From positions 10,402-74,401 of the forward strand of contig CAZULB010000001.1 of the NCBI GenBank assembly GCA_964621155.1: DNA of 64,000 nt, given 5' to 3'. Made by a program: the position numbers and the translations under genes. This DNA is from an uncultured bacterium (lineage in GTDB: Bacteria; Krumholzibacteriota; Krumholzibacteriia; WVZY01; JAKEHA01). Shown piece by piece: positions 1,205 to 14,425 of this stretch. The notes below the pieces were generated by a model that saw only the letters and a list, made by a program, of their open reading frames with translations, did no database searches and was not told the DNA's origin. How positions within the stretch are numbered: the first letter of the stretch is position 1; every line of letters begins with the position of its first letter.

Positions 1205-3223
1205 TTGCTGACGACCGCGCGCGCGCGATCGGCGCCGGCCGACGCCACCGTTCCGGCCATTCCCGACTCGATCCCGGTGATGCCGCCCATCATCGTGACG
1301 GCGAAGCGGCCCGATTTTCGTTCCGACATCGTGAACCGGCCGGGATTCGTCGCGTTGGTGGACATGTCGCAGCGCAGGGACCGCGTGGAGGACCTGCCCG
1401 CGATTCTTTCCCAGCTGGTGGGCGTGCGTGTTACGCAGTATGGGGGGATGGGCAGCTTTGCGACGGTGTCGATTCGCGGCTCGTCGTCGAGCCAGGTGCG
1501 CACCTTCCTCGACGGGATTCCCATCGATGATCCCTATCTGGGTATCACCAACATCGGCGATCTTCCCCTGGGCGGAGTTGACCGCGTCGAGGTCTATCGC
1601 GGGTTTTCTCCTCCCGCGCTCGGTAGTGCCGCGATGGGTGGTGCGGTGCAATTGGTCTCGCGCATGGACGGCACGCACGATGCGCTGCTCTCTGGTGTGG
1701 AGGCAAACGCGTCCGCGGGATCTTTCGAAACCCGCCGGGAAGCAATTTCGTTCTGGCTAAAACCCCGCCAATTTCGTTTCTTCGGACACGGAACCCATGA
1801 GTCGTCGGCCGGTGATTTTGAGTTCGTCGACGACAATGGAACTCGGGAGAATCCTGATGACGATCGCACCACGGCTCGGGTTAACAATGACTTCGACGCG
1901 TGGAGCGGCATGCTTCGGGGCAGCGCCGAGATGCCGGGAGTGGGAACCGTGCTCGCGGGCTACTACGACGCCGCGCGCAACAATGGTGTTCCGGGCCTCG
2001 GCTCGAATCAATCGGTCAGTGCCCGCTCTGAACGGCGCCGTCGCCTCGGCCAGGTACGGATAGAGGGTGCTCCGCGCTGCGACGACCGCCTCGCTTGGAC
2101 GGCGGCCGGTTTCTATCATCGTGCGAACGAGAAGTTCCACGACCCCGACGGTGAGATAGCGCTCACCGCGGAAGAGACAGACAACACGATCAACGCGTAC
2201 GGTGGAACGGCGCGCCTGAAGTATCTGATTCCGGGTAACCGGTTCTCTGTTGAGGCGAATTACTCTGCAACGACAGAGCAGTTCCACCCGGCAGAGACAT
2301 TGCCCGCACAAGAAAACGGCCCGGACCGCTGGCGGCGGACGGTGATGATTGCGCTCGGGGGCGACGCGTATCTCATCGGCCAGTCGTTGGTGGTCTCGGG
2401 CCTTTTTCGTTATGAGCGGCACGCCGACGAGTTCGGCGATGAATCCGATTACCCCTGGCTTCCCCCCACCGCCGAAGGACGTTTCGAGCACGAGACGACC
2501 TCGCCTGGCGCCGGCGCGCGCTGGCACGCGCGATCGTGGCTCACCCTCAAGGGCAATATCGGGCGCTACTACCGGCTTCCCACTTTTCTGGAACTGTTTG
2601 GCAACACCGGCGCGGTTACCGGAAATGCCGCTCTCGAACCCGAAGAAGGTGTCAATCGTGACGCCGGCTTCACGGTGAACGTCGCTCGCGCCGGGTTTGC
2701 GCGCTCGCTCTTCGCCGAGGTGAGCTACTTCGACAACACCGTCGACAACCTCATCCTGTTCTGGCCCAACTCGCAATGGACGACTCAGCCCAGCAATATC
2801 GGAGCCGCGCGCATTCGCGGTATCGAGAGCAGCGTAAGCGCCGCGTTGCCGTATCAATTCGATGTGAGTGCCGCGTACACGTTCATGGACGCGGAGGACA
2901 CCGGCAACCTGGCGCGATACCACGGCAAGGCTCTTCCGTCCCGCCCGCGGCACGACTTCAACGGCTCGCTGTCGTATTCGTGGCACGCGCTGCGGGCGAC
3001 GTACGAGCTGCACTACATCAGCGCCAACTATCTCGACCGTTACAACGCAATGCTGACCGACGCGCGCGATCTGCACTCGTTGATTCTGACGCTGCGCGCG
3101 CCGGTTGACGGACTCTCTCTCTCGCTCGAAGGACGCAATCTGGGCGACGTGCACACCGCAGACGTGGCGGGCTTTCCCCTCCCCGGCCGGAGCGTGTATT
3201 CGACGCTGGGATATCGGTATTAG
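1205..3223 (+). CDS. TonB-dependent outer-membrane receptor
   Basis: The plug-domain signature is present (VRVTQYGGMGSFATVSIRGSSSSQVRTFLDGIPIDDP ... VDRVEVYRG). The protein is long and beta-rich and ends in an aromatic residue (YRY). The true start is probably upstream of the TTG at 1205 (see findings). Confidence 0.8.
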   Translation: MLTTARARSAPADATVPAIPDSIPVMPPIIVTAKRPDFRSDIVNRPGFVALVDMSQRRDRVEDLPAILSQLVGVRVTQYGGMGSFATVSIRGSSSSQVRTFLDGIPIDDPYLGITNIGDLPLGGVDRVEVYRGFSPPALGSAAMGGAVQLVSRMDGTHDALLSGVEANASAGSFETRREAISFWLKPRQFRFFGHGTHESSAGDFEFVDDNGTRENPDDDRTTARVNNDFDAWSGMLRGSAEMPGVGTVLAGYYDAARNNGVPGLGSNQSVSARSERRRRLGQVRIEGAPRCDDRLAWTAAGFYHRANEKFHDPDGEIALTAEETDNTINAYGGTARLKYLIPGNRFSVEANYSATTEQFHPAETLPAQENGPDRWRRTVMIALGGDAYLIGQSLVVSGLFRYERHADEFGDESDYPWLPPTAEGRFEHETTSPGAGARWHARSWLTLKGNIGRYYRLPTFLELFGNTGAVTGNAALEPEEGVNRDAGFTVNVARAGFARSLFAEVSYFDNTVDNLILFWPNSQWTTQPSNIGAARIRGIESSVSAALPYQFDVSAAYTFMDAEDTGNLARYHGKALPSRPRHDFNGSLSYSWHALRATYELHYISANYLDRYNAMLTDARDLHSLILTLRAPVDGLSLSLEGRNLGDVHTADVAGFPLPGRSVYSTLGYRY

Positions 3224-3274: not shown

Positions 3275-4426
3275 ATGTTCAAGAATTCCCGATCTGCCCT
3301 TCTCTGCCTGTTGCCGGCCCTGGCCGGCGCGCTGGCGCTGGCCGCGTGTGAAGAGGATTCAGTTTCGTCGGGCCTGCCGCCCGTGCAGGGCTATTTCGCT
3401 TTCGTCACCACCACCGACTACCAGACCGGTTCCGCGTCCGTTGTCAGCGCGGACGATTCCGTGCTGGCGGCAGTCAACGATGTGGCCTTGCTGCACAGCG
3501 ACGCCCTCGCACGCGCATACGGAGGTCTCATTTATGCACTGAACCGCCAGGGCGCAGACAACGTGACTGTGATTGATCCGCTTGACGGATTCCGCATTCG
3601 CCGGCAGTTCAGCACCGGGAACGGCTCCGACCCCGAAGACATCGTGTTTCAGAACGCGAGCCGCGCATTCGTGTCGCGCTACAACGAAAATCAGGTGTGG
3701 ATCGTCAACCCCAACACCGGCCAGCGCTCCGGCCTGATCGACTTTTCGTGGCTGGCGGACGCCGACCTCGTTCCGGAGATGGCGCACATGGTGAAAGTCG
3801 GCAACCGCGTTCTTGTCGCCATCCAACGGCTGGATCGCAGCACGCCCTTTTTCGATCCGACCGGCACCAGCTACGTGGCGGTGTTCGATGCCGGCAGCGA
3901 ACAGTTTATCGACGCCGAGCCGGGGACGAGCGGCACGCAGGCCATCAAGCTGGGTGGTGTCAATCCCTTCGGTGAGATGGTGTACAACACCGCGTCGGGG
4001 AAGATCTGGGTACCCACGGTGGGCTATTTCGGCATCGCGGACGGGGGCATCGAGGTGTTGGACCCGGTAACGCTTACGACCGGCGGCATCGTGATCACCG
4101 AGACGACACTCGGTGGCGATGTGACCGATGTCGTGGCTTTGGACGCCAATCGCGGCGCCGCCATCGTGAGCGACTCCAATTTCAACACACTGCTGGTCGG
4201 GTTCGATCTAACCACGCCTACGTCGATTGACACCATTTATGCGCCCGGCAGCTTTGCCCTGCAGGATGCGGAGCGCTCGCGCGATGGCCGCATTTTTGTT
4301 TCGGACCGGTCGGTTGCATTGCCGGGAATCCGTGTGTTTCGCGGCAGCGATCACACGCAGATTACCACCAACCCGATCGACGTCGGGCTACCGCCCGCCG
4401 ACATCGAGTTCGTGACGACCAACTAG
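3275..4426 (+). CDS. Lipoprotein, predicted beta-propeller-like surface protein partnered with the TonB-dependent receptor
   Basis: GGAGG RBS. Signal peptide with lipobox (LALAAC). Beta-strand-rich repeats (YVAVFD, IVITET, AIVSD). Sits immediately downstream of the receptor gene. Confidence 0.55.
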   Translation: MFKNSRSALLCLLPALAGALALAACEEDSVSSGLPPVQGYFAFVTTTDYQTGSASVVSADDSVLAAVNDVALLHSDALARAYGGLIYALNRQGADNVTVIDPLDGFRIRRQFSTGNGSDPEDIVFQNASRAFVSRYNENQVWIVNPNTGQRSGLIDFSWLADADLVPEMAHMVKVGNRVLVAIQRLDRSTPFFDPTGTSYVAVFDAGSEQFIDAEPGTSGTQAIKLGGVNPFGEMVYNTASGKIWVPTVGYFGIADGGIEVLDPVTLTTGGIVITETTLGGDVTDVVALDANRGAAIVSDSNFNTLLVGFDLTTPTSIDTIYAPGSFALQDAERSRDGRIFVSDRSVALPGIRVFRGSDHTQITTNPIDVGLPPADIEFVTTN

Positions 4427-4433
4427 ATGAGCG

Positions 4434-5438
4434 CTACGTTTCGAGCTGATAGAGCTGCCAGAGATCGCGCGTGCTCTGGTGCAGGAGCGGCTTCATGGCA
4501 AGGCGGCCGGTGACACCGATGCTTTTCTCCAAATGTTTGAGCTCGGTGAATTTCTCGCGCGTGCCGTCGGGCACGGCGGGTTTGAACCCGGCTTCCTTCA
4601 TCATGAGTATGCCTTTGGCGCTGATGGCAAGCTCGGTATGAATGCGGAGATAGCAGAGCATGTCCACCACCACCGCGGGTTCGAACTGCCGCCCCAGCTC
4701 GGTGACATAGCGTCCGATCCGGCTGTCGCCCATGGTGCCCGAGTTCATGATCTCGAGCAGTTCGGCGTCGACATCCATCTGGCGCCCCAACCAATGGCGC
4801 GTCGCTCTTTCGCTTTCCCAGAAGGCAAAGATGAGAATTGCCGGCAAGGTGACGTGCAGCAGAATGGTCGAGAGCACGGGCGAAAGCAGGAAGTGGTTGA
4901 AGAGCGAATGTACCAGAATGACGAGCACGAGGGCCGGCACGTACGCCGTCCAGTGGCCGGCGCGCCGGTCCACGAGTGTGCGGGTTATGATGCCGTAGAC
5001 GGCGGTCATGCCGCCGTGCATCACCGCGGTGCCCAGCCCGCGCACAATCCACACCACGATATTGTGCGTTTCCAGCACGCGGATGTAATAGATGTTTTCC
5101 ACCAGCGCAAAGCCTGCGCCCACCGCAAACCCGACGATGGCTGCATCCACCATGAAGCCGATGCGCCGCCGCGCGATCAGCCACGCCAGCCATGCGGCCT
5201 TGAACGTTTCTTCGACCGGCGGCGCCGCATAACGCGTGATCAGAGCGCGCTTCCAGCCGGTGGCGTGCATGATGGAGTCGTTGATGGCGAGACTTACGAC
5301 GGCAACCGCAATACCGATGATCAGCGCCGCCACCAGCTCGCGCGGGCGCACGAGCTGAAAGCTGTCGAGATAGTTCAGCACAAAGAGAAACACGACGACC
5401 GGAAGCAGGCTTACAAGAATGCGGACGATGATTTCCAT
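4434..5438 (-). CDS. PrsW-family intramembrane metalloprotease
   Basis: Multi-pass membrane protein carrying the conserved PrsW motifs EETFK (EExxK), GFALVEN and HSLFN (HxxxN). Confidence 0.65.
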   Translation of the reverse strand: MEIIVRILVSLLPVVVFLFVLNYLDSFQLVRPRELVAALIIGIAVAVVSLAINDSIMHATGWKRALITRYAAPPVEETFKAAWLAWLIARRRIGFMVDAAIVGFAVGAGFALVENIYYIRVLETHNIVVWIVRGLGTAVMHGGMTAVYGIITRTLVDRRAGHWTAYVPALVLVILVHSLFNHFLLSPVLSTILLHVTLPAILIFAFWESERATRHWLGRQMDVDAELLEIMNSGTMGDSRIGRYVTELGRQFEPAVVVDMLCYLRIHTELAISAKGILMMKEAGFKPAVPDGTREKFTELKHLEKSIGVTGRLAMKPLLHQSTRDLWQLYQLET

Positions 5439-5443
5439 TGCGG

Positions 5444-8389
5444 CTACATGATCTTGAGCGAAATCATGAACTCGGATTCCACTTCGCGGCCTTCCTCTTT
5501 GGCGGCCGCTGCGCCGATGGACAGCGTGGACTCGAGCGCAGAGAAAATGACGAGACGGAAATCGATCTGTCCGCCCCAGTTGATTGCCTCGCGCCGGAAC
5601 GCGCTGTCATCCATGTTGGTGACCAGGCCGATGGTAAAGAGCGCCGGGCGCGCGTAAGTGCAGTAGAACTTCGGAACCCCCGCGCGCCGGAACCTCACCG
5701 GCGGGAGCGTCCACTCCACCATTGCCCTCGCGAAGTTGGTGCCGGAGATCGCATCGATCTCGGCGCCGGGAAACCGTTCGAAGTTGCGGTAGCGCTTCAC
5801 CTCCTGGTGGTCGACGTAGTTGTTGCCGAATCCACCGAAGTAGAAGCTGGCAAAACTGTCGTCGCGGTTGCCGCGCGAATAACCGCCCGCGGCGCGCAGC
5901 CACACCGACGAATGATCGATGGGCGTGAGGGCGCCGACGTCCACCTGCGCGGTTCCCCTACCGTAAAAGTCACGATTCACCAGATTGCCCTCAACCCCCA
6001 GCGACCACAACACGCCTTTCTCGTCGTCGACGGCGCCAATGGTGCGCTGCACGCGTTTGTAGTCGAGGCTGGCCGTGGCGGCGCCGTACTCGTTGAACGT
6101 CGCCAGCACGTTCTGGTTGTAGGGCAGTCGTTCTAGCCCGCCGTACCATGCCGCGTTCACCGTGTATTCGAGGTAGCGCGGGCGATCCGCAATGATGAAG
6201 TCGGAGCGCTCCAGCACCACACCATGGCCCTTGCGGCTCACTTTGGTGGGGCCAAAGAAATCGTAGAAGTCGGAACGATTGTACGCCGCCTTGAGCGTCC
6301 ACGGAAAATGGCGGAACACCATCTTCGCATGCCACATCTCCTTGTCGGGCGCGTCCGGCGAAACCCCGGCCACCACATCCCCACCGTGCACACCCAGCGG
6401 ATCCATGAAGTTCCAGCGCACACCAATGGTCGTGTAGGCCTTGTAATACTCCGCGACGGGGTAGATGGAAGCCGCCGTAATGCTGCGGACGTTGTGGTAC
6501 ACGCCACGATATGTGGTCAGTGAATCCAGATTCACGTCGCGTGGCGACGGAAGCTTCCACTCCCGGAGCTCGGGATAACGCGTAACAACCTCGTTACCGA
6601 GATACTGGATCGCGTTCACATCGGTCAGCGTAGTGTCGGCAATGACCGCCGGGTGAAAGCCGTCGCCCGCATACGCAAAGACAACGAGCGAGTCGCCCAT
6701 GGGAATAGGGCGGAAGAAGCCCACGTCAGTATTGGTGACGCAGTCCATGGCCGCGCGCTCGAAGTCCCACTTGAACACGTTGGACACGCCGGTCTGATAC
6801 GACGTCCCGTAGAGATATTTACCGTCTTTGGCATACACGAAGTTGGCAGGCGCCGTCCTGTCGAACTCGTAGAGCGTGCGATACGAACCTCCACCCTTGA
6901 GCAGATCGACGGTGTCGAACTCGACCAGCTTCACGTCACCGTTGATTTCGAGGATGGAAGCCGTGAGATGCTTTCCATCGGGCGCGACATCCAGATCGAA
7001 GACGTCGCGGCCATAGGTGAGGTCCATCACCGGCAGGATGCACTTCCAGGCGTTGTACGGCGATGCGATGCGAACCAGAGTCGAGAACCCGTTGTGGTGC
7101 TGCACGCCCCAGAGTGCGCTGTCGGCTGCGCTGTAAGCCAGGTCGCCGATGCGGCAGTCGGAAATGAGCCGCGTCGACTTGCGCGTCTCCAAGTCGATCG
7201 CGTTCAGGTCGCGCCAGTGCTTGCCGTTGTTGGTGGTGTAAAACAACCGGCGCTGGTTCGGGTCGAAGGCAAGAGAGCAAACGTAGTAGAGCGCGGGTGT
7301 CTTTACTTCATGAAGCGATTCCATCTCACCGGTGGTCAGGTCGACTGATGCAACGTGTGCAAAGGCACCCGGATAGTTCACCGCTACCAGGAGTCGGCCG
7401 GTCTTCGGATCCACGAAACCGCGCGACACCGAGCCCAGGCCGCGCGTTCCCACCACACGCGCATGGGTGAGCGGATACTGCGCCACGGTTTCCAGATTGC
7501 GCGCCTGCCACTCGTGCTCGAACTCGATCCAGCGTTCCCACATGTCCTCCAGCGACACGCCAAACACGCGGTGGAACTGCGACGCGTAGTACGCATCCGA
7601 GCTGTCGGTGCGATTGACCCACGCCATCACCCTTTCCGGTCCCTGCTGGGCGGCCAGATACGACATGAAACGCGTGCCGTAGAGATACGAGTTCTGGCCG
7701 ATCTGGAAATCGCTCGTCGTCCCTTCCGACTCGAGCCCGACGATGTCATAGAAATATTTTCTGTCGCGCACCATGGCACGGAACGCCATCTCGTCGTAGC
7801 CGCCGAGCGAGCGCCCGATGCCGCCGGCGAGCCACGTCTCCATGAAGCAGGCGATGCCCTCGTGGTACCAGCGCGGTGCGAAACGTCGCGGCGAGCACAG
7901 GTACGAGTAGATCATCGATTCCGGATTTTCGGAGTCGGCCAGCACCTTGCCACGGAAGAGCGACCGAAATACCCGGTCAATGTGGCTGGTCTTTTCGGAA
8001 GCGACCACGTGGAAGAGCTCGTGGCTCATGACCCAGTTGAAACGCTCGTTGGTCGGGCACGTCTCGTAGACGTATTCAAAGGGTTCGATGCCGAGCGTGA
8101 TGTAGTTGTTCGGAATCGTCGACGTTCCGGCATAGCCGTAGTCGTCGAAGTCCTGCAGCAGGATCGTGACTTCTTCGCCGGGAACGTATCCGAGCGAGCG
8201 CTCGAAGTAGCCGTACGAGTTTTCAAAACAGCGGGCGAGGTGCGGAATGATGTAGGCGTGCGCGGGATCGTAATAAACGACGCGCAGCGTCTTTGTCTGC
8301 AGGCACTGCAGATCAAGCCCGGCGCGTGACGGTACGGCACCGAGTGCAGCAATGATTGCGATCACAATGGAGACGGTGAGGGCGCGCAT
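5444..8389 (-). CDS. Large outer-membrane protein: N-terminal HExxH zincin-like domain, central TolB/WD40-like beta-propeller, C-terminal Omp85/surface-antigen-like beta-barrel
   Basis: Signal peptide MRALTVSIVIAIIAALGAVPSRA (start chosen at ATG 8389). MSHELFHVV ... HEGIACFMETW resembles HExxH...E. Propeller-like repeats (LLVAVNYPG, LFYTTNNG, LAYSAADS). C-terminus FYFGGFGNNYVDH...GGQIDF resembles the bacterial surface-antigen barrel. Confidence 0.55.
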   Translation of the reverse strand: MRALTVSIVIAIIAALGAVPSRAGLDLQCLQTKTLRVVYYDPAHAYIIPHLARCFENSYGYFERSLGYVPGEEVTILLQDFDDYGYAGTSTIPNNYITLGIEPFEYVYETCPTNERFNWVMSHELFHVVASEKTSHIDRVFRSLFRGKVLADSENPESMIYSYLCSPRRFAPRWYHEGIACFMETWLAGGIGRSLGGYDEMAFRAMVRDRKYFYDIVGLESEGTTSDFQIGQNSYLYGTRFMSYLAAQQGPERVMAWVNRTDSSDAYYASQFHRVFGVSLEDMWERWIEFEHEWQARNLETVAQYPLTHARVVGTRGLGSVSRGFVDPKTGRLLVAVNYPGAFAHVASVDLTTGEMESLHEVKTPALYYVCSLAFDPNQRRLFYTTNNGKHWRDLNAIDLETRKSTRLISDCRIGDLAYSAADSALWGVQHHNGFSTLVRIASPYNAWKCILPVMDLTYGRDVFDLDVAPDGKHLTASILEINGDVKLVEFDTVDLLKGGGSYRTLYEFDRTAPANFVYAKDGKYLYGTSYQTGVSNVFKWDFERAAMDCVTNTDVGFFRPIPMGDSLVVFAYAGDGFHPAVIADTTLTDVNAIQYLGNEVVTRYPELREWKLPSPRDVNLDSLTTYRGVYHNVRSITAASIYPVAEYYKAYTTIGVRWNFMDPLGVHGGDVVAGVSPDAPDKEMWHAKMVFRHFPWTLKAAYNRSDFYDFFGPTKVSRKGHGVVLERSDFIIADRPRYLEYTVNAAWYGGLERLPYNQNVLATFNEYGAATASLDYKRVQRTIGAVDDEKGVLWSLGVEGNLVNRDFYGRGTAQVDVGALTPIDHSSVWLRAAGGYSRGNRDDSFASFYFGGFGNNYVDHQEVKRYRNFERFPGAEIDAISGTNFARAMVEWTLPPVRFRRAGVPKFYCTYARPALFTIGLVTNMDDSAFRREAINWGGQIDFRLVIFSALESTLSIGAAAAKEEGREVESEFMISLKIM

Positions 8390-8442
8390 CTCGTTCCGCA
8401 GCAGTCTACGTGAGTCGGGTACGGACCACAAGGTGATGACCG

Positions 8443-8482
8443 CAAAAACGGGGCGCCACGTTTTGGTTTCGTGGCGCCCCGT
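8443..8482 (-). terminator. Rho-independent terminator downstream of the repeat-protein gene
   Basis: 13-bp perfect stem ACGGGGCGCCACG / CGTGGCGCCCCGT with a 9-nt loop. On the minus strand it is followed by TTTTTG. Confidence 0.55.
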
Positions 8483-8526
8483 CTGGTCATTGCGAAGAAG
8501 TCGGGACTGATGTTGAACGAATGCTG

Positions 8527-9594
8527 TTAGTTCCTGGCCGCCTTCTCCATCTCGGGAGCCTTCTCCAGCGAAGCCTGGGCGCGGTCGCCGACAAAGGCAC
8601 GCTCGAAGGCCGCGGCGCGCTCCGCTTCCGGCGCACGATCCAGGAAGGACGCACGCTCGGTCACGGTTGCATAGTTCAGGATCGCGGCGCGCTCGGCGTC
8701 CGTCGCTGCCTTTTCGAGCTTCACGCGTTCCGCTTCGGGCGCACGGGCGATGATCGAAGCGCGCTCTTCCTTGCTGGCGCGGTCGACGAACTTGGCACGC
8801 TCGGCCACGCTGGCACGCTCGACGATCGCCGCACGGGCGTCAACCGACATGCGCTGCGTCATGTTCATGCGCTCTTCGGCACTGGCACGCTGCAGGATCG
8901 AGGCACGCTCTTCGACGCTGGCCCTGGCCAGGACGGAGGCACGCTCGGTCGCGGTGGCGCGCTCGTACAGCTTGACGCGCTCGTCGGGCGTCGCACGTTC
9001 GAGCATCCTGGTGCGCTCGTCCGGAGTCGCCTGGTTGAAGATCGCGGCACGCTCGGCCACGCTCATGCGGTCGAGCGAGATGTTGGCGCGATCGATCATC
9101 TGGGCGCGTTCGGTCTCGGTGGCACGCTCGAACGCATCCGCCTCGACGCCGGCCTTCTGCAGCACTGAGGCGCGCTCCGTGATGTTCATGCGGCCGAGGA
9201 TCGACGCGCGCTCTTCGGGCGTGGAGCGAGCGAGGAGCGACGCGCGCTCATCGACGCTGGCGCGCTCGAGAATCGACGACGCCATCTGCTTGTCCATGCG
9301 GCTGTACAGATTGAGACGCTCCTGCGCCGACATGCGGCCCATGATTGCCCCGAACGTTTCGAGGCTGGCCGGATCATTGGCCAGCGCCATGAAGAACGCG
9401 TCCGGCGCGGCGGCGTTGTTGTCCGTAACCACGTCGTTCGGCGTGATCTGTTCCGAACGATACTTGTCCACCGTGCCGATGGCGCCCGATACGTCGGTGC
9501 CGGTCGGCGTGGTGTTGCGGGATTTCATGAAAACGACGGAGCCAATGACGACGACACTCAATGCAATCAAAAGACTGGTTGACCTCTTCGACAT
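8527..9594 (-). CDS. Membrane-anchored repeat protein (about 24 copies of a 12-aa xxERAxxxxRAx unit)
   Basis: N-terminal TM/signal anchor MSKRSTSLLIALSVVVIGSVVFM. The rest is degenerate tandem repeats such as VEERASILQRAS / VAERAKFVDRAS / EAERVKLEKAAT. Last gene of the sigma/anti-sigma operon. Confidence 0.55.
   Translation of the reverse strand: MSKRSTSLLIALSVVVIGSVVFMKSRNTTPTGTDVSGAIGTVDKYRSEQITPNDVVTDNNAAAPDAFFMALANDPASLETFGAIMGRMSAQERLNLYSRMDKQMASSILERASVDERASLLARSTPEERASILGRMNITERASVLQKAGVEADAFERATETERAQMIDRANISLDRMSVAERAAIFNQATPDERTRMLERATPDERVKLYERATATERASVLARASVEERASILQRASAEERMNMTQRMSVDARAAIVERASVAERAKFVDRASKEERASIIARAPEAERVKLEKAATDAERAAILNYATVTERASFLDRAPEAERAAAFERAFVGDRAQASLEKAPEMEKAARN
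8570..9320 (-). repeat. 36-bp periodic coding repeat (ERA repeats) inside CDS 8527..9594
   Basis: The 12-aa repeat is visible in the translation. The + strand ORFs 8521..9168 and 8750..9628 are antisense artefacts of this periodicity. Confidence 0.5.
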
Positions 9595-9702
9595 GACCCT
9601 TCCTCCTTGGACGGTGGGTGTGTACTGAATTGCTGTCGATCGTACTACATTCGCCCGGATGCGAAGTTGGTGGGCGACCCAAGATTTTCTTCCCGAAACA
9701 GC

Positions 9703-9725
9703 GACGCCCCCGAAGGCGGGGCGTC
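9703..9725 (-). terminator. Possible weak intrinsic terminator after the anti-sigma gene
   Basis: GC hairpin GACGCCCC...GGGGCGTC followed on the minus strand by a GCTGTTTC tract. Confidence 0.3.
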
Positions 9726-9737
9726 CCCGGGTAAGTC

Positions 9738-10508
9738 TTAGTGGCCCGCCGGGCGCCCCTCGAAGACCGGCTGCCCCGCTTGAAGTAGTTTCAGGACAAC
9801 AGCTTGCGCGGCTTCTCGGGAGCCGGAAAAGACCAGCGTAATGCCGCCTTCTCCGGTGTGCAGACCCTGCACCGAGGTCCGATTGGCGGCAAACGCGGCG
9901 GTCGCGGTTCCTTCTCTTTCGACGCGGAGAAGCTGCCAGGCGTCACCATCAAAATCGAGATGCCACTCGACGGGGACGGTCGACTGCAGCCGCAGCCGGA
10001 CCGCCAGGTTGGAGCCCTGCTCTTCGATACTGGCGCCACCCGAGACGGTGCCTTTTTCGGTTTCTACCGGGATGGAACCGAGCGTGGCGCGCTCATCGGA
10101 AACCATCGAACCGGAAATGCTGCCCGGATCGACACTGCGCGCGTTCCACATGCCGGGACGTCCCTGCTGAACGGCTATAAGAATCAGAGCGCCCGCCGCC
10201 AATCCCAGACCGAAGGTGGACCAGGGGCGCAGCGCAACCGAGAAGAATCCTTTTCGCACCGGCGCCATCTGCACCGGCCGGCGCACGCTCTCGCGTTGCA
10301 CGGCATCCAGAATGCGCGGCTCGAGTTCGGTGGGAGGCTCGGGCATGGGTTCGTGGTTCAACTTCTCGACCACGCGCGCCAACGACTCATAATAGGAGCG
10401 CGCCGTGGGATCAGCGGTGAGCACCTTCTCCAGCTCGGCGCGTTCGCGCGGCGATGCGACGCCGTCGATGGCCAGATTCATGAGTTCTATGGTTTTGGGC
10501 TCGATCAT
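9738..10508 (-). CDS. Anti-sigma factor (single-pass membrane protein)
   Basis: N-terminal anti-sigma domain (ELMNLAIDGVASPRERAELEKVL...YYESL). One TM (GLGLAAGALILIAVQ). Its start overlaps the ECF sigma stop by 4 nt (ATGA). Confidence 0.65.
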   Translation of the reverse strand: MIEPKTIELMNLAIDGVASPRERAELEKVLTADPTARSYYESLARVVEKLNHEPMPEPPTELEPRILDAVQRESVRRPVQMAPVRKGFFSVALRPWSTFGLGLAAGALILIAVQQGRPGMWNARSVDPGSISGSMVSDERATLGSIPVETEKGTVSGGASIEEQGSNLAVRLRLQSTVPVEWHLDFDGDAWQLLRVEREGTATAAFAANRTSVQGLHTGEGGITLVFSGSREAAQAVVLKLLQAGQPVFEGRPAGH

Positions 10509-11062
10509 TCCGTGATCCCCCTTGCGGTCAGGATGTCCTTGAGCTGCTGACGGGCAGTAAACAGGCGGGACTTCACGGTCTTTTCCGGGACACCGAGCAC
10601 GTCGGCCATCTCCTGGTAGGAGAAATCGTGGTAGTGCTTGAGCACGATCACCATGCGATAGTCCGGTTTCAGCATTTCGATGGCCTCGACGATCTCCTCG
10701 CTCAGTGCCGCGGCGCTGTGCGTCGCTTCCTGCGTGGGCGCCAGCACGACACTCTCCCCGCTCTGATACTCCTCGTTGCGTTTGGCCCGGTTCGTAAAGT
10801 TGATCGATTCATTGATGGTGATGCGATAAATCCAACTGAAGAACTCATGCCTGTCATCGTACGAATCGAGCTTCTGGTACACCTTCACGAACACGCCCTG
10901 CACGATGTCCATGGCGTCGTCCCGGTCGCGGGTCATGCGCAGCGCCAGGTGGTAGAGAGGCTTCTCGTACTTGCGCACGAGGGCATCAAAGGCGCGCGAA
11001 TCACCCGCGAGGCATTGCCGGACCAGGATGGCGTCGGCGTTCGGGTCTTTCAGTGAAGACAT
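10505..11062 (-). CDS. ECF (sigma-70 family, group 4) RNA polymerase sigma factor
   Basis: Region 2 (DAMDIVQGVFVKVYQKLDSYDDRHEFFSWIYRITIN) and region 4 (LSYQEMADVLGVPEKTVKSRLFTARQQL) motifs. Confidence 0.85.
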   Translation of the reverse strand: MSSLKDPNADAILVRQCLAGDSRAFDALVRKYEKPLYHLALRMTRDRDDAMDIVQGVFVKVYQKLDSYDDRHEFFSWIYRITINESINFTNRAKRNEEYQSGESVVLAPTQEATHSAAALSEEIVEAIEMLKPDYRMVIVLKHYHDFSYQEMADVLGVPEKTVKSRLFTARQQLKDILTARGITE

Positions 11063-11129
11063 ACAGTCGGGGTGGCCGAAAAGTTGGCAAGAATATGCCG
11101 ATCGGCCTGCGGAAGCGTTGATGGCACTG

Positions 11130-11447
11130 CTACTTGATAATGAACACCTGGCTGAAACCGGCGATGGAGAAGAGCTCCTTGATGTGGCGGCTCATGTGCG
11201 TCAGGACGAGGCTCTGCCCCTTTTCCGCGAGTCGGCGCTGAACGCCGAGAAGAACACCCAGGCAGGCGCTCGAGATGTAGTCCACGTTCTCGAAGTCGAG
11301 CTCGCACGTGGCCTCCACGGGCTTCAACTCTTCACGCAGTCGGTCCGCCTGAGCGGCGTCCAACCTTCCCACCAGAATGAATTCCCCGTTGGGGCCGCGA
11401 CGGACATCGAGCATGAATTGCCTTTCGCCGAACAAGGAGATTACCAC
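11130..11447 (-). CDS. STAS-domain protein (anti-sigma factor antagonist-like)
   Basis: LVGRLDAAQADRLREELKP...LDFENVDYISSACLGVLLGVQRRLAEKGQSLVL is typical of SpoIIAA/STAS. An alternative start ATG at 11414 would give 94 aa. Confidence 0.6.
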   Translation of the reverse strand: MVISLFGERQFMLDVRRGPNGEFILVGRLDAAQADRLREELKPVEATCELDFENVDYISSACLGVLLGVQRRLAEKGQSLVLTHMSRHIKELFSIAGFSQVFIIK

Positions 11448-11526
11448 ATCAGCGGAAGGCGCCGTATCTGATTCTGTGCAAGAGTCTTAGCGCGGCGTGC
11501 CCGGGCGAGCGAGAAGCGGCGAGTTG

Positions 11527-11955
11527 TCAGTCGTCGTTGCGAACCGATCCGCGCATGCGCTTGGTGGCAGAACGGCGGCGTTTGGCATCGACGCGGTTGG
11601 CCTTGGCGGCGCGCGAAACGCGGGTCATGCGGCGGTGTTTGGGAGGAGTGGCGGCGGTGCGGATCATTTCGACCAGACGTTCGATGGCGTCGGCACGGTT
11701 GCGCTCCTGGGTGCGAAAGCGGCGCGCCGTAATAATAAGGACGCCCTCGCGCGTGAGACGGGAGCCAACGCGCGAGACGAGTCGGGCCCGCACATCATCG
11801 GGGAGCGATCGTGAATGAGCGGCGTGGAACCGAAGCTGGGCGGTCGTCGCCACTTTGTTCACGTTCTGACCGCCCGGTCCCGACGAGCGCACGAAAGTAA
11901 TGTCGAGCTCGGACTCGTCGATCGAGAGCGTGGGGGTGATGTGGATCCGGGCCAC
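11527..11955 (-). CDS. arfB: Alternative ribosome-rescue factor ArfB (peptidyl-tRNA hydrolase, GGQ family)
   Basis: 142 aa. GGQ motif in SSGPGGQNVNKV with a basic C-terminal tail, as in ArfB/YaeJ. Confidence 0.85.
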   Translation of the reverse strand: MARIHITPTLSIDESELDITFVRSSGPGGQNVNKVATTAQLRFHAAHSRSLPDDVRARLVSRVGSRLTREGVLIITARRFRTQERNRADAIERLVEMIRTAATPPKHRRMTRVSRAAKANRVDAKRRRSATKRMRGSVRNDD

Positions 11956-11958
11956 GGT

Positions 11959-14325
11959 CTACTTGAGCAACACCATCTTGCGCGACAGCGTGGTCAGTGC
12001 CGTGTCCAGCCGGTACAGATAAACTCCGCTCGCCAGCTGCTGGCCGCGATCATCACGTCCATCGAACGTGACACGGTGCGGACCTTTGGCCTCGACGGCG
12101 TCCACCAGCGTGCGCACCAGATGACCCGCCGTGTCGAAAACGCGAATGCGTACCGGTCCCGCCAGCCCCAGTGAATACTCGATGGTGGTTTCCGGATTGA
12201 ACGGGTTCGGGTGATTTGCGTGCAGCTCGGTGAGTGCGGGCAAATCGCCCGCGCCGGTAGCCACGGGCTTGAGCCAGATGCCGTCGGTGAGGCCAACGCG
12301 ACGCTGGGTGGCGCCGTAGGTAATGTTTGTGATGAGTGTGTCCGGCACGTAGCCGGGCGCCGAAAAGATGATGGTCACGTCCTCGTTGGTGCCGCGGGTG
12401 GGGCCGTCGTCATACAGAAAATAGAAGCGGCCATCGTCCTGGACGTGCTGCACAAAACCGCGTTCGATGGAGCGCGCGGTAAAGTTGGAAATGATGTGCT
12501 GACTGTACTTGTCGCGCACTTCGCCGTTGATCTCGCCGGTGGCGTAGGGCCCACTGAGCACCGTGTTCAACGCGGCACGCCCATCGACCGACTTTTCGAA
12601 GTATTCTTCCCACGTCTTCCTGAAGAGAGCAATCTTGTCGAGCTGCGCCTGCAAAGGCACGGTCCCCTGCTTGATGAGGAAGATGAAACCCTGGCGCAGC
12701 ACATGCTCTTCGTCGGCCACCACGGGCGTGCGTGGGCCTTCCGAAGCGATGATATCCTCTACCGTCACGGGGACAAAGGTACCGGTGGCAACCGAACCCA
12801 TGAGCGGCGTCCCCACGGAACGAGCGCTCACGGTATTGTTGGACGCGCTGGATATGAAGAAGAAGTCCTTCACTTCATTGGGCGTACGCATGCCAAAGAG
12901 GTACTCGTCGATCTCCGAGAAGTAGTCGACGTTGGTGGGGCAGCTGTAGTTGCTGCCACCCGTGCTCACCCAGTCACCGCCTTCGAGAGAGCTGTGATCG
13001 AGATCTGCGTAGTAACTCCAGTGCGCGTCGGAGCGGCCCAGGATCAGATTGCTATGGCCGACTCCGTACGTGACGAAAGCACCCCAGCGGTGTCCCGACT
13101 CCTGCCCCATGATGGTGAGGAAGCTGTTGCCCTTGCCGAAGGTGCGCGCAGCGGGGTCGGCTGAGGCCCATACGTCGAGATTGTTCATGTTGCATCGGCT
13201 CTCGAGCACGCCCGACGACCCGTACGATGCACTGCCGTCGAAGATGTTGAGCCCGATGCCGGTCACATCGTTACTGATGTTGACCTCGTTCGCGAACCCG
13301 GCCATGGTCTGGGTGAAGTTCGTGAAGAAAACGAGCTGAAAGAACTCATCAGCGAACTGGGAATAGAAACGCTGGAACAGCGCCGCCTCGTCCACGAGCG
13401 GATTGGCGTAGCTGTAGTACTGCTCGAACACGGCCGCGCCGGCAGCACTCGTGTGCGGGAGCCCTGAAGAGTAGCTGATCTCCTCGAGCGTCGGGTTGTT
13501 GACGCTGGGGTTGTATCCCGTGAGGCTTCCGATATTGGAGCCGATTCCGTTATAGGTAATGGTGAAATCCCCGTTCGGGAACATTACCAGTTGAAACGTG
13601 TTGCTGGCCGGTTGGCCGTACTCGAACACGTTGATATACGTCACCGTGTACTTGGTGGCTTCACTGCGCACGCGCACATCGCCGTTCGCGGTTTCATCAA
13701 GGTCCAGGTAATAGGGCGCAATCTTCGGGGTCGTGCTGAGAAAGTCGTTCGGATCGAAAAACGCGCCGTTAATGGGAGCGCCGAATGAGACCGCGCCGTT
13801 TCCACTCACATACATCTGCGTGTACGTTGTTCCGGCGTAGGGAAACGCAAACGGAAGGTTGACCAGCACCGCGCCGTCGTCGCCGGGGGCGAGCAACGTC
13901 CCCAATGTGTTGTCGTAGCTGAACGTCTGCGACGTGATGGTGTAGGCGGTTCCGCTCCTGGTGTACTTGTGGGTCTGGTGGTCGACCACGAACGGGTTGG
14001 TGCCGCTCAGCGTGAGCGTGCCGTCGTCTTCGATGACCCAGACGTTGTCATAGACGTAGTCGAGCCCGGTGGTGACGGCACCGGCTTTATGCGCTATCTG
14101 CTTCTGTTTGGCGGCGTGCAGCAGCCGCGCCCCCCGGTTTTCAGTTTCGTTTCCCTTGTAGGTGCCACAGTCAAAGACGGTCTCTCCCAGCGCGGTATAA
14201 GTCCGTTGGGGCTGGGCGACCTTCTGCGGAACGCCGGAACGCGGCCGGGCCTGCGCGCTTGAAACGAGGCAAAGGCTTGCAAGGAAACCAAAAAGGAGCC
14301 GTTTGTGCGCTGACGATCCCGCCAT
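11959..14325 (-). CDS. Secreted protein with T9SS-type C-terminal sorting domain
   Basis: Signal peptide MAGSSAHKRLLFGFLASLCLVSSAQA (start ATG 14325, GGAGG RBS). C-terminus NPFNPETTIEYSL...IRVFDTAGHLVRTLVD...GVYLYRLD...RKMVLLK. Confidence 0.7.
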   Translation of the reverse strand: MAGSSAHKRLLFGFLASLCLVSSAQARPRSGVPQKVAQPQRTYTALGETVFDCGTYKGNETENRGARLLHAAKQKQIAHKAGAVTTGLDYVYDNVWVIEDDGTLTLSGTNPFVVDHQTHKYTRSGTAYTITSQTFSYDNTLGTLLAPGDDGAVLVNLPFAFPYAGTTYTQMYVSGNGAVSFGAPINGAFFDPNDFLSTTPKIAPYYLDLDETANGDVRVRSEATKYTVTYINVFEYGQPASNTFQLVMFPNGDFTITYNGIGSNIGSLTGYNPSVNNPTLEEISYSSGLPHTSAAGAAVFEQYYSYANPLVDEAALFQRFYSQFADEFFQLVFFTNFTQTMAGFANEVNISNDVTGIGLNIFDGSASYGSSGVLESRCNMNNLDVWASADPAARTFGKGNSFLTIMGQESGHRWGAFVTYGVGHSNLILGRSDAHWSYYADLDHSSLEGGDWVSTGGSNYSCPTNVDYFSEIDEYLFGMRTPNEVKDFFFISSASNNTVSARSVGTPLMGSVATGTFVPVTVEDIIASEGPRTPVVADEEHVLRQGFIFLIKQGTVPLQAQLDKIALFRKTWEEYFEKSVDGRAALNTVLSGPYATGEINGEVRDKYSQHIISNFTARSIERGFVQHVQDDGRFYFLYDDGPTRGTNEDVTIIFSAPGYVPDTLITNITYGATQRRVGLTDGIWLKPVATGAGDLPALTELHANHPNPFNPETTIEYSLGLAGPVRIRVFDTAGHLVRTLVDAVEAKGPHRVTFDGRDDRGQQLASGVYLYRLDTALTTLSRKMVLLK

Positions 14326-14425
14326 GGATGCGTCCTCCGAAGGACGAGAATGTGGAAAGCACCGGTCGGAACAGAGTGGGGTGTGCTCGCTATATTTTCG
14401 CACTCGGGCAGGCTATGCGCAATGA

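Follow-up and report, generated by a model that had tools for sequence, protein, structure and literature searches.

What role could an outer-membrane barrel play when the same chain carries a zinc-peptidase-like head and a beta-propeller, and when its gene stands among those for a sigma factor, an anti-sigma factor and a membrane protease? This question is raised by the gene at positions 5444..8389 (minus strand, stop codon included) of the window, as we denote the whole stretch of 64,000 nucleotides analyzed here, which comes from contig CAZULB010000001.1 of an uncultured member of the Krumholzibacteriota. By computation, we established the domain architecture of the encoded protein, the conservation of its active-site residues, the gene order around it and two kinds of gene fusion. 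In our estimate, the chances are about evenly divided that this outer-membrane protein is a periplasm-facing, barrel-anchored protease that acts, together with the PrsW protease encoded next to it, on the repeat tail of an anti-sigma system and thereby controls the sigma factor.

A three-domain outer-membrane protein with a conserved peptidase motif

The minus-strand open reading frame (ORF) spans 5444..8431 from a TTG start. When read from the ATG at 8389 to the TAG stop, it encodes 981 amino acids (aa), as anticipated by the first-pass annotation of this DNA, a reading of the sequence alone (~980 aa at 5444-8389). The gene was delineated from the ORF, from a public database protein of 981 aa (P0001) that is 100% identical to it and belongs to a cluster containing a Candidatus Krumholzibacteria record, and from an AlphaFold2 model built on a 118-sequence alignment (predicted local distance difference test [pLDDT] 89.8; predicted template modeling score [pTM] 0.87). 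The chain starts with a signal peptide (aa 1-24, MRALTVSIVIAIIAALGAVPSRAG; 8318..8389, minus strand, as for all features of this gene) that was recognized in the sequence and is helical, with low pLDDT, in the model; cleavage is predicted after aa 24. Next come a zinc-peptidase-like domain of the gluzincin type (aa 28-302; 7484..8308), alpha/beta plus helical in the model, and a six-bladed TolB/PD40-like beta-propeller (aa 310-584; 6638..7462), in which ~24 strands make up six four-stranded blades with the PD40 repeat signature. A linker of three short helices assigned by DSSP on the model (aa 597-624; 6518..6601) leads from the propeller to the Omp85-type barrel region (aa 627-981; 5447..6511), which consists of 16 long strands (aa 638-979).

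All three parts proposed in the first-pass annotation, namely, a zincin-like head, TolB/WD40-like blades and an Omp85-like C-terminal barrel, are borne out by the model, and the barrel strings quoted there are present in the protein (FYFGGFGNNYVDH at aa 849-861 and GGQIDF at aa 939-944). The barrel is larger than the ~250 aa suggested, at ~345 aa (aa ~636-981), and the POTRA-like modules that might have been expected between the propeller and the barrel are missing: the only elements found there are the three short helices of the linker, and POTRA was detected neither in the AlphaFold2 model nor by Pfam among 30 family members.

Barrel strands 11 and 12 are connected by a long loop, defined by the strand pattern of the model and by conservation (aa 839-884; 5738..5875), so that 11 strands precede it and 5 follow, as for loop L6 of BamA. 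This highly conserved loop of 46 residues occupies the L6 position of Omp85 proteins and carries the motif FYFGGFGNN.VD…RYR…FPG, not the (V/I)RG(F/Y) motif of L6, which is found nowhere in the window protein. Given 16 strands and the standard Omp85 loop pattern, the chain is predicted to enter the barrel from the periplasm, which places the N-terminal head in the periplasm. Together with the likeness to PlpD, an Omp85 protein with an enzyme head that was shown by experiment to be periplasmic and not secreted (PMC11116518), the modeled strand pattern makes it most likely that the peptidase and propeller face the periplasm. The self-inserting surface protease offered in the first-pass annotation is not favored because both the predicted topology and the PlpD precedent put the head on the periplasmic side. 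Some relatives, including P0153 and P0151, have an N-terminal extension of ~265-280 aa, and in P0153, residues 156-246 of this extension give a sub-threshold match to the AMIN domain (18.7 bits, with the cut-off at 20.5). Because AMIN domains are periplasmic and associated with the cell wall, this weak match would fit a periplasmic head.

The predicted active site consists of two motifs supported by both conservation and the model. HELFH (aa 123-127; 8009..8023), an HExxH zinc-binding and catalytic motif, lies on helix 116-132 within the MSHELFHVV string of the first-pass annotation (aa 121-129; 8003-8029), and the downstream HEG..E noted there is part of WYHEGIA…ETW (WYHEGIACFMETW, aa 174-186; 7832..7870), on helix 173-187, which carries E177. 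H123, E124, H127, E177 and E184 are invariant in all 118 full-length homologs with 50-87% identity, and both HExxH and W..EG.A.F.ETW are retained in 29 of the 31 full-length relatives with 23-46% identity. In a protein of the same composition, 0.03 HExxH motifs are expected by chance; by itself, the motif carries little weight, and it is the conservation that decides. An incidental match was rejected because the residues are invariant and the domain matches a peptidase fold. The domain adopts the thermolysin-like catalytic fold, with the layout of gluzincins (clan MA(E)), that is, HExxH on one helix and a glutamate on a later one in the model. The M1 family motif is WLNEGFA, which WYHEGIACFMETW resembles; from this likeness and the fold match, E177 is the probable third zinc ligand. 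The head is predicted to be an active peptidase. We considered and rejected membership in the M1 aminopeptidases: the GxMEN motif is absent from the entire 981-aa protein, the spacing between H127 and E177 is 49 residues compared with 18, and the N-terminal and C-terminal domains of M1 are lacking. Sequence identity to M1 and to the M30 gluzincins hyicolysin/lugdulysin is 12-14%. HExxH was lost in two distant members, P0149 (DRESMQ) and P0181 (NYQTTQ), the latter also without ETW; judging from their sequences, these proteins may be non-catalytic versions.

No curated domain model covers this family among the databases searched, and all the records that we saw are named “hypothetical protein.” The Pfam search with the single window protein returned only sub-threshold matches, to PD40 and to Omp85_2 (PF19143; 16.3 bits compared with the cut-off of 23.1), with no significant match to Bac_surface_Ag (PF01103); NCBIfam gave no match to this protein, and the PDB, queried by sequence with this protein alone and with a profile, yielded nothing beyond marginal propeller matches. 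Across the 30 members, Pfam detected Peptidase_MA_2 in 6, PD40 in 12 and Omp85_2 (at E<0.01) in 9. The family can nevertheless be placed. Heinz and Lithgow (2014) delineated ten subfamilies of the Omp85/TpsB superfamily, including a “WD40-like” one (PMC4104836), and accepted subfamilies without POTRA as members of the superfamily. For the WD40-like proteins, Table S3 of that work lists fold hits to the BamA barrel and TolB and a “best aminopeptidase hit,” whereas the main text treats the propeller only, as a BamA-BamB-like fusion, without function or gene context. The window protein, with a TolB-like propeller before the barrel and an aminopeptidase-like region before the propeller, matches this type in its three-domain architecture. 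The architecture had thus been cataloged already, without a function, and in 2024, the WD40-like subfamily was still described as not well characterized (PMC11116518). A type V autotransporter was rejected given the 16 strands and the Omp85 fold, as opposed to a 12-strand barrel.

Far from being the unusual chimera that it seemed in the first-pass annotation, the protein has at least 577 counterparts in a one-genome-per-species scan, spread over ~15 phyla. A word-indexed search matched 3659 proteins, with the best 120 nearly all full length, and when 1.84 billion cluster representatives (50% identity) were searched exhaustively, 2375 matched, with full-length ones down to 26% identity. The carriers include Latescibacterota, Krumholzibacteria, Eisenbacteria, Fibrobacteres, Acidobacteriota, Gemmatimonadota, Calditrichota, KSB1, Zixibacteria, Marinimicrobia, Cloacimonadota and Delongbacteria; within Bacteroidota, Ignavibacteria, Chlorobi, Cytophagia, Chitinophagales and Balneolaceae; and the gammaproteobacterium Aliikangiella. 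The three-domain architecture is old and fixed, not an odd one-off, and the thousands of full-length homologs led us to reject a mis-assembled or chimeric ORF.

A conserved gene cluster and two gene fusions

The outer-membrane protein gene is one of seven consecutive minus-strand genes in the window, of which the first six by coordinate (4434-11447) form a conserved cluster. The prsW gene (4434..5438) starts 5 nucleotides past the stop of the outer-membrane protein gene and encodes a PrsW-family membrane protease of 334 aa (Pfam PF13367, E 1.8e-20) with intact EETFK, FALVE and HSLFN motifs. Directly upstream of the outer-membrane protein gene is a gene for a single-pass, N-terminally anchored repeat protein of 355 aa (8527..9594). 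Further upstream are genes for a single-pass anti-sigma factor of 256 aa (9738..10508), with a zf-HC2 match at E 0.04 that rises above the threshold in the ortholog from locus L006; an extracytoplasmic function (ECF)-type sigma-70 factor of 185 aa (10505..11062; Pfam Sigma70_r2 and Sigma70_r4_2), whose gene overlaps that of the anti-sigma factor by 4 nucleotides; and a STAS-domain protein of the RsbV-like anti-anti-sigma type, 105 aa (11130..11447; Pfam STAS_2, E 4.4e-16). The seventh gene (11527..11955) encodes an RF-1-domain protein, an ArfB-like peptidyl-tRNA hydrolase, and occupies the place where an RsbW-like kinase gene stands in many related loci.

To count the neighbors, small profiles made from these proteins were run against 85 loci, the denominators being the loci with enough flanking sequence. 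PrsW is encoded directly downstream of the outer-membrane protein in 76 of 77 loci. On the upstream side, the repeat protein is recovered by its profile in 53 of 67, the ECF sigma factor and the anti-sigma factor each in 45 of 52, the STAS protein in 43 of 52 and the RsbW-like kinase in 40 of 52. Inspection by eye of eight loci, seven of them without a profile match to the repeat protein, revealed an equivalent directly upstream in seven, six of which had escaped the profile; in the eighth, L076, the repeat protein, fused to an anti-sigma domain, is encoded slightly further upstream. The same gene order is seen in six related contigs from different phyla, with the RsbW-like kinase gene preceding that for the STAS protein. 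A scan of 4200-12000 for promoters and terminators performed no better than on shuffled sequence and is silent on co-transcription.

The repeat protein combines a fixed juxtamembrane motif with a highly variable tail. In the window, the juxtamembrane motif GAIGTVDKYRSEQITPNDV is followed by helical repeats of ~12 aa (ERAS…), which appear in the gene as an array with a 36-nucleotide period. Over 67 proteins, the motif GTIGgVkKYRaeQItdkDVvL following the transmembrane helix is ~90% conserved at its G, I, G, Q and D positions. The arrays consist of 9-12-aa helical units in proteins of 223-807 aa (orthologs include L001 5469-7892, L003 5474-7888, L004 6634-7866 and L007 6625-7713), and between lineages, the repeat sequence is wholly different and the repeat number varies 3-4-fold, while GTIG..KYR..QI…DV.L remains fixed. 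Pfam recognizes the repeats, including those of the window protein, as MgtE_N-like only. Two of the repeat-protein genes contain runs of N, read as X (L023 5192-6202 and L025 5989-6696); the repeats are possibly masked or hard to assemble, and repeat counts from metagenome-assembled genomes may be unreliable.

These components are linked by two kinds of gene fusion. In about 9 loci, a single ORF encodes the N-terminal domain of the anti-sigma factor, the transmembrane helix, the GTIG motif and the repeat array (L017 437-1720, L023 5192-6202, L040 5563-6705, L048 5437-6783, L062 5032-6756, L084 4858-6765, L076 5621-6796 and L086 2182-3462), which places the repeats in the periplasm. The other fusion, P0147, is a protein of 1365 aa in which a complete PrsW is in frame with the precursor of the outer-membrane protein (L092 7001-11098; L093 4839-8936). 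All four members of the P0147 cluster are 1365 aa long and come from separate assemblies, and at this locus, a transmembrane protein with GDIGKAKTYRS is encoded 10 nucleotides upstream. From the sequence, the signal peptide inside P0147 would become an extra membrane helix, and the protein, if unprocessed, would be one chain across both membranes. The window PrsW itself has a helical, cytoplasmic C-terminal extension (aa ~200-334) of ~130 aa beyond the Pfam domain, which is conserved, including in the fused P0147 (…MVDMMCYIRIY…MKEAGY…).

Distant relatives (identities are relative to the window outer-membrane protein) indicate which parts of the cluster are the most deeply conserved. At 39% identity, L089 encodes a sigma factor, an anti-sigma factor, three small GAAGTIVAAKR proteins, the outer-membrane protein and PrsW; at 33%, L090 has a GNIGKANKQQ protein, the outer-membrane protein and PrsW, and no nearby sigma factor. 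In L091 (31%) and in L088 from Aliikangiella (26%), the upstream repeat protein is secreted, with VAERYG and TAERFA, respectively, near its N-terminus; the AER[FY] motif is 5-6 residues from the predicted mature N-terminus. The pair of repeat protein, anchored or secreted, and outer-membrane protein is thus kept down to 26% identity, even without PrsW and the sigma factor. These loci suggest that the deepest conserved unit consists of the repeat protein and the outer-membrane protein, that PrsW comes next and that the sigma module is a feature of the core clade.

The repeat proteins of L088 and L091 have a cleavable signal peptide. In L088 (11120-12004), the gene downstream encodes a membrane-anchored LytTR DNA-binding protein in place of PrsW, and in L091 (10042-10623), an RDD-family membrane protein, followed by FIST and PAS/GAF sensor proteins. 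In the window, the cluster is adjoined by a minus-strand gene (11959-14403) for an 814-aa protein with a NIDO-like region and a FlgD_ig/type IX secretion C-terminal sorting domain; a similar FlgD_ig/Por_Secre_tail protein is encoded near the cluster in L002. On the opposite strand, converging on the PrsW end of the cluster, are genes for a TonB-dependent receptor (1205-3223) and a 383-aa lipoprotein-like protein (3275-4426), which gave no Pfam match.

A putative role in signaling by proteolysis, and its alternatives

With an ECF sigma factor, an anti-sigma factor, the repeat protein and PrsW as conserved neighbors, the cluster points to signaling by proteolysis, and for this reason the BamA-like assembly factor that had also been offered in the first-pass annotation is not favored. 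That PrsW serves as the site-1 protease of an anti-sigma factor has been proven (reviewed in PMC3482391). In the mechanism that we propose, the propeller and peptidase head would bind the repeat tail and cut it close to the outer membrane, and the cut would expose the juxtamembrane region to PrsW. Like the Bacillus subtilis enzyme on RsiW, PrsW would then act as the site-1 protease, with its cut within or close to the conserved juxtamembrane motif, and a site-2 protease encoded elsewhere would free the ECF sigma factor of the cluster. The STAS protein and the RsbW-like kinase could add a cytoplasmic input, and in lineages with the fusion, the repeat protein is itself the anti-sigma factor. Which protein is cut, in what order the proteases act and what effect this has on the sigma factor are inferred; the order in particular, with the outer-membrane protein cutting first and PrsW second, is doubtful, and we put it forward tentatively. 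Taken as a whole, the module could be an unrecognized trans-envelope signaling system of many phyla, in which an Omp85-anchored head reads or cuts a repeat tether of the anti-sigma factor while physically partnering with PrsW; we find this possible, at somewhat less than even confidence.

Several observations weigh against this proposal. In the window, no RsbW-like kinase gene is found next to the STAS gene, and sigma factor genes are absent near the relatives L090, L092, L064, L073 and L081. The evidence on the family and its cluster comes from sequence and predicted structure, and the orientation of the head is a prediction taken from the secondary-structure string of the model. Gene neighborhood cannot separate a signal transducer from an effector that is merely switched on by the sigma factor. 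A tether in the outer membrane is far from the site at which the anti-sigma factor would be cut in the inner membrane, so that only the distal part of the tail would be within reach. In B. subtilis, the first cut is made by PrsW, and trimming by other proteases follows. The reverse of the proposed order is plausible: the tail, once freed by PrsW, would be degraded or exported by the outer-membrane protein. The AER[FY] motif near the mature N-terminus of the secreted repeat proteins in L088 and L091 would fit this reverse order.

If the protein is an effector induced by the ECF sigma factor, it could be a machine for quality control or assembly of outer-membrane proteins, a BamA, BamB and BepA in one chain that folds or degrades stalled substrates. 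We regard this as unlikely: the protein has neither POTRA, which BamA and TamA use for substrate handling, nor the (V/I)RG(F/Y) loop motif, and a quality-control role does not explain why an anchored repeat protein and PrsW accompany it almost everywhere, why the two gene fusions exist or why the pair persists in loci that have no sigma gene. The barrel might instead be a secretion device that exports its own head, in the manner of an autotransporter, or, like TpsB, exports the repeat protein once freed by PrsW or signal peptidase. This is improbable in our view. A folded head of ~580 aa is unlikely to pass through a 16-strand barrel, and the analogous claim for PlpD was overturned by experiment (PMC11116518); POTRA and the TPS domain are both lacking, a repeat protein fused to a cytoplasmic anti-sigma domain cannot be fully secreted, and the invariant peptidase site would be left without an obvious role.

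The members P0149 and P0181, which lack the motif, and the weak sequence matches to peptidase families speak for yet another explanation, namely, that HExxH is a relic and the protein serves as a non-catalytic scaffold, a structural tether or receptor at the outer membrane. Even so, we consider this very improbable. Proteolysis of the repeat tail in concert with PrsW is the reading that we prefer over all of these.

Comparison with known systems

We found no paper describing the cluster in a literature search, and PrsW, STAS, Omp85 and propellers all go unmentioned in the ECF reclassification paper. What appears to be undescribed is the phylum-spanning gene module, with its two gene fusions and hypervariable repeat partner; the protein type had been listed before. 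To our knowledge, all Omp85 proteins studied to date assemble or translocate other proteins, and the proposed function, if true, would be the first signaling role for a member of this superfamily. It would provide a candidate envelope-stress pathway in Bacteroidota-related phyla, Acidobacteriota and Gemmatimonadota, and a route for information from the outer membrane to the cytoplasm in many environmentally dominant double-membraned bacteria. The role of Omp85 subfamilies without POTRA has been posed as an open question (PMC11116518). The cluster makes this question testable by offering a candidate substrate, the repeat protein; a partner protease, PrsW; and a read-out, the ECF sigma factor. 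The fusion of PrsW to the barrel raises a further question, that of how one chain is inserted into both membranes.

Among Omp85 proteins, PlpD likewise has an N-terminal enzyme domain in place of a POTRA array. It has a lipase head and retains one POTRA, whereas the window protein combines a zinc peptidase with a propeller and has no POTRA; PlpD is not known to be part of a cluster with sigma, anti-sigma and PrsW genes. Similar elements meet at the outer membrane of Escherichia coli in the assembly and quality control of outer-membrane proteins, where BamA supplies an Omp85 barrel, BamB a propeller and BepA a periplasmic zinc protease. The TpsB-TpsA systems also pair a gene for an Omp85-family barrel with one for a repeat-rich partner whose N-terminus carries a conserved element; unlike these, the cluster described here has no POTRA and no TPS domain, and its partner is membrane anchored and sometimes an anti-sigma factor.

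The FecA-FecR-FecI system resembles the cluster in having an outer-membrane barrel with a periplasmic domain, a single-pass anti-sigma factor spanning the periplasm and an ECF sigma factor. Signals relayed by FecA-type systems pass through the envelope, and their end point is proteolysis of the anti-sigma factor. FecA, however, is a 22-strand TonB-dependent transporter with a small signaling domain, whereas the window protein has a 16-strand Omp85 barrel and a protease of its own.

With the Sigma-W/RsiW/PrsW/RasP system of B. subtilis, the cluster has in common an ECF sigma factor, a single-pass anti-sigma factor of the zf-HC2 type and PrsW, which in B. subtilis cuts the extracytoplasmic part of the anti-sigma factor at site 1. 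The B. subtilis prsW gene lies outside the sigW operon, and this bacterium has no outer membrane and no Omp85 partner. In the cluster, PrsW stands beside, or is fused to, an outer-membrane protein, and a variable repeat array makes up the extracytoplasmic part; the module, if it works as proposed, would extend regulated proteolysis of the PrsW type to a two-membrane setting.

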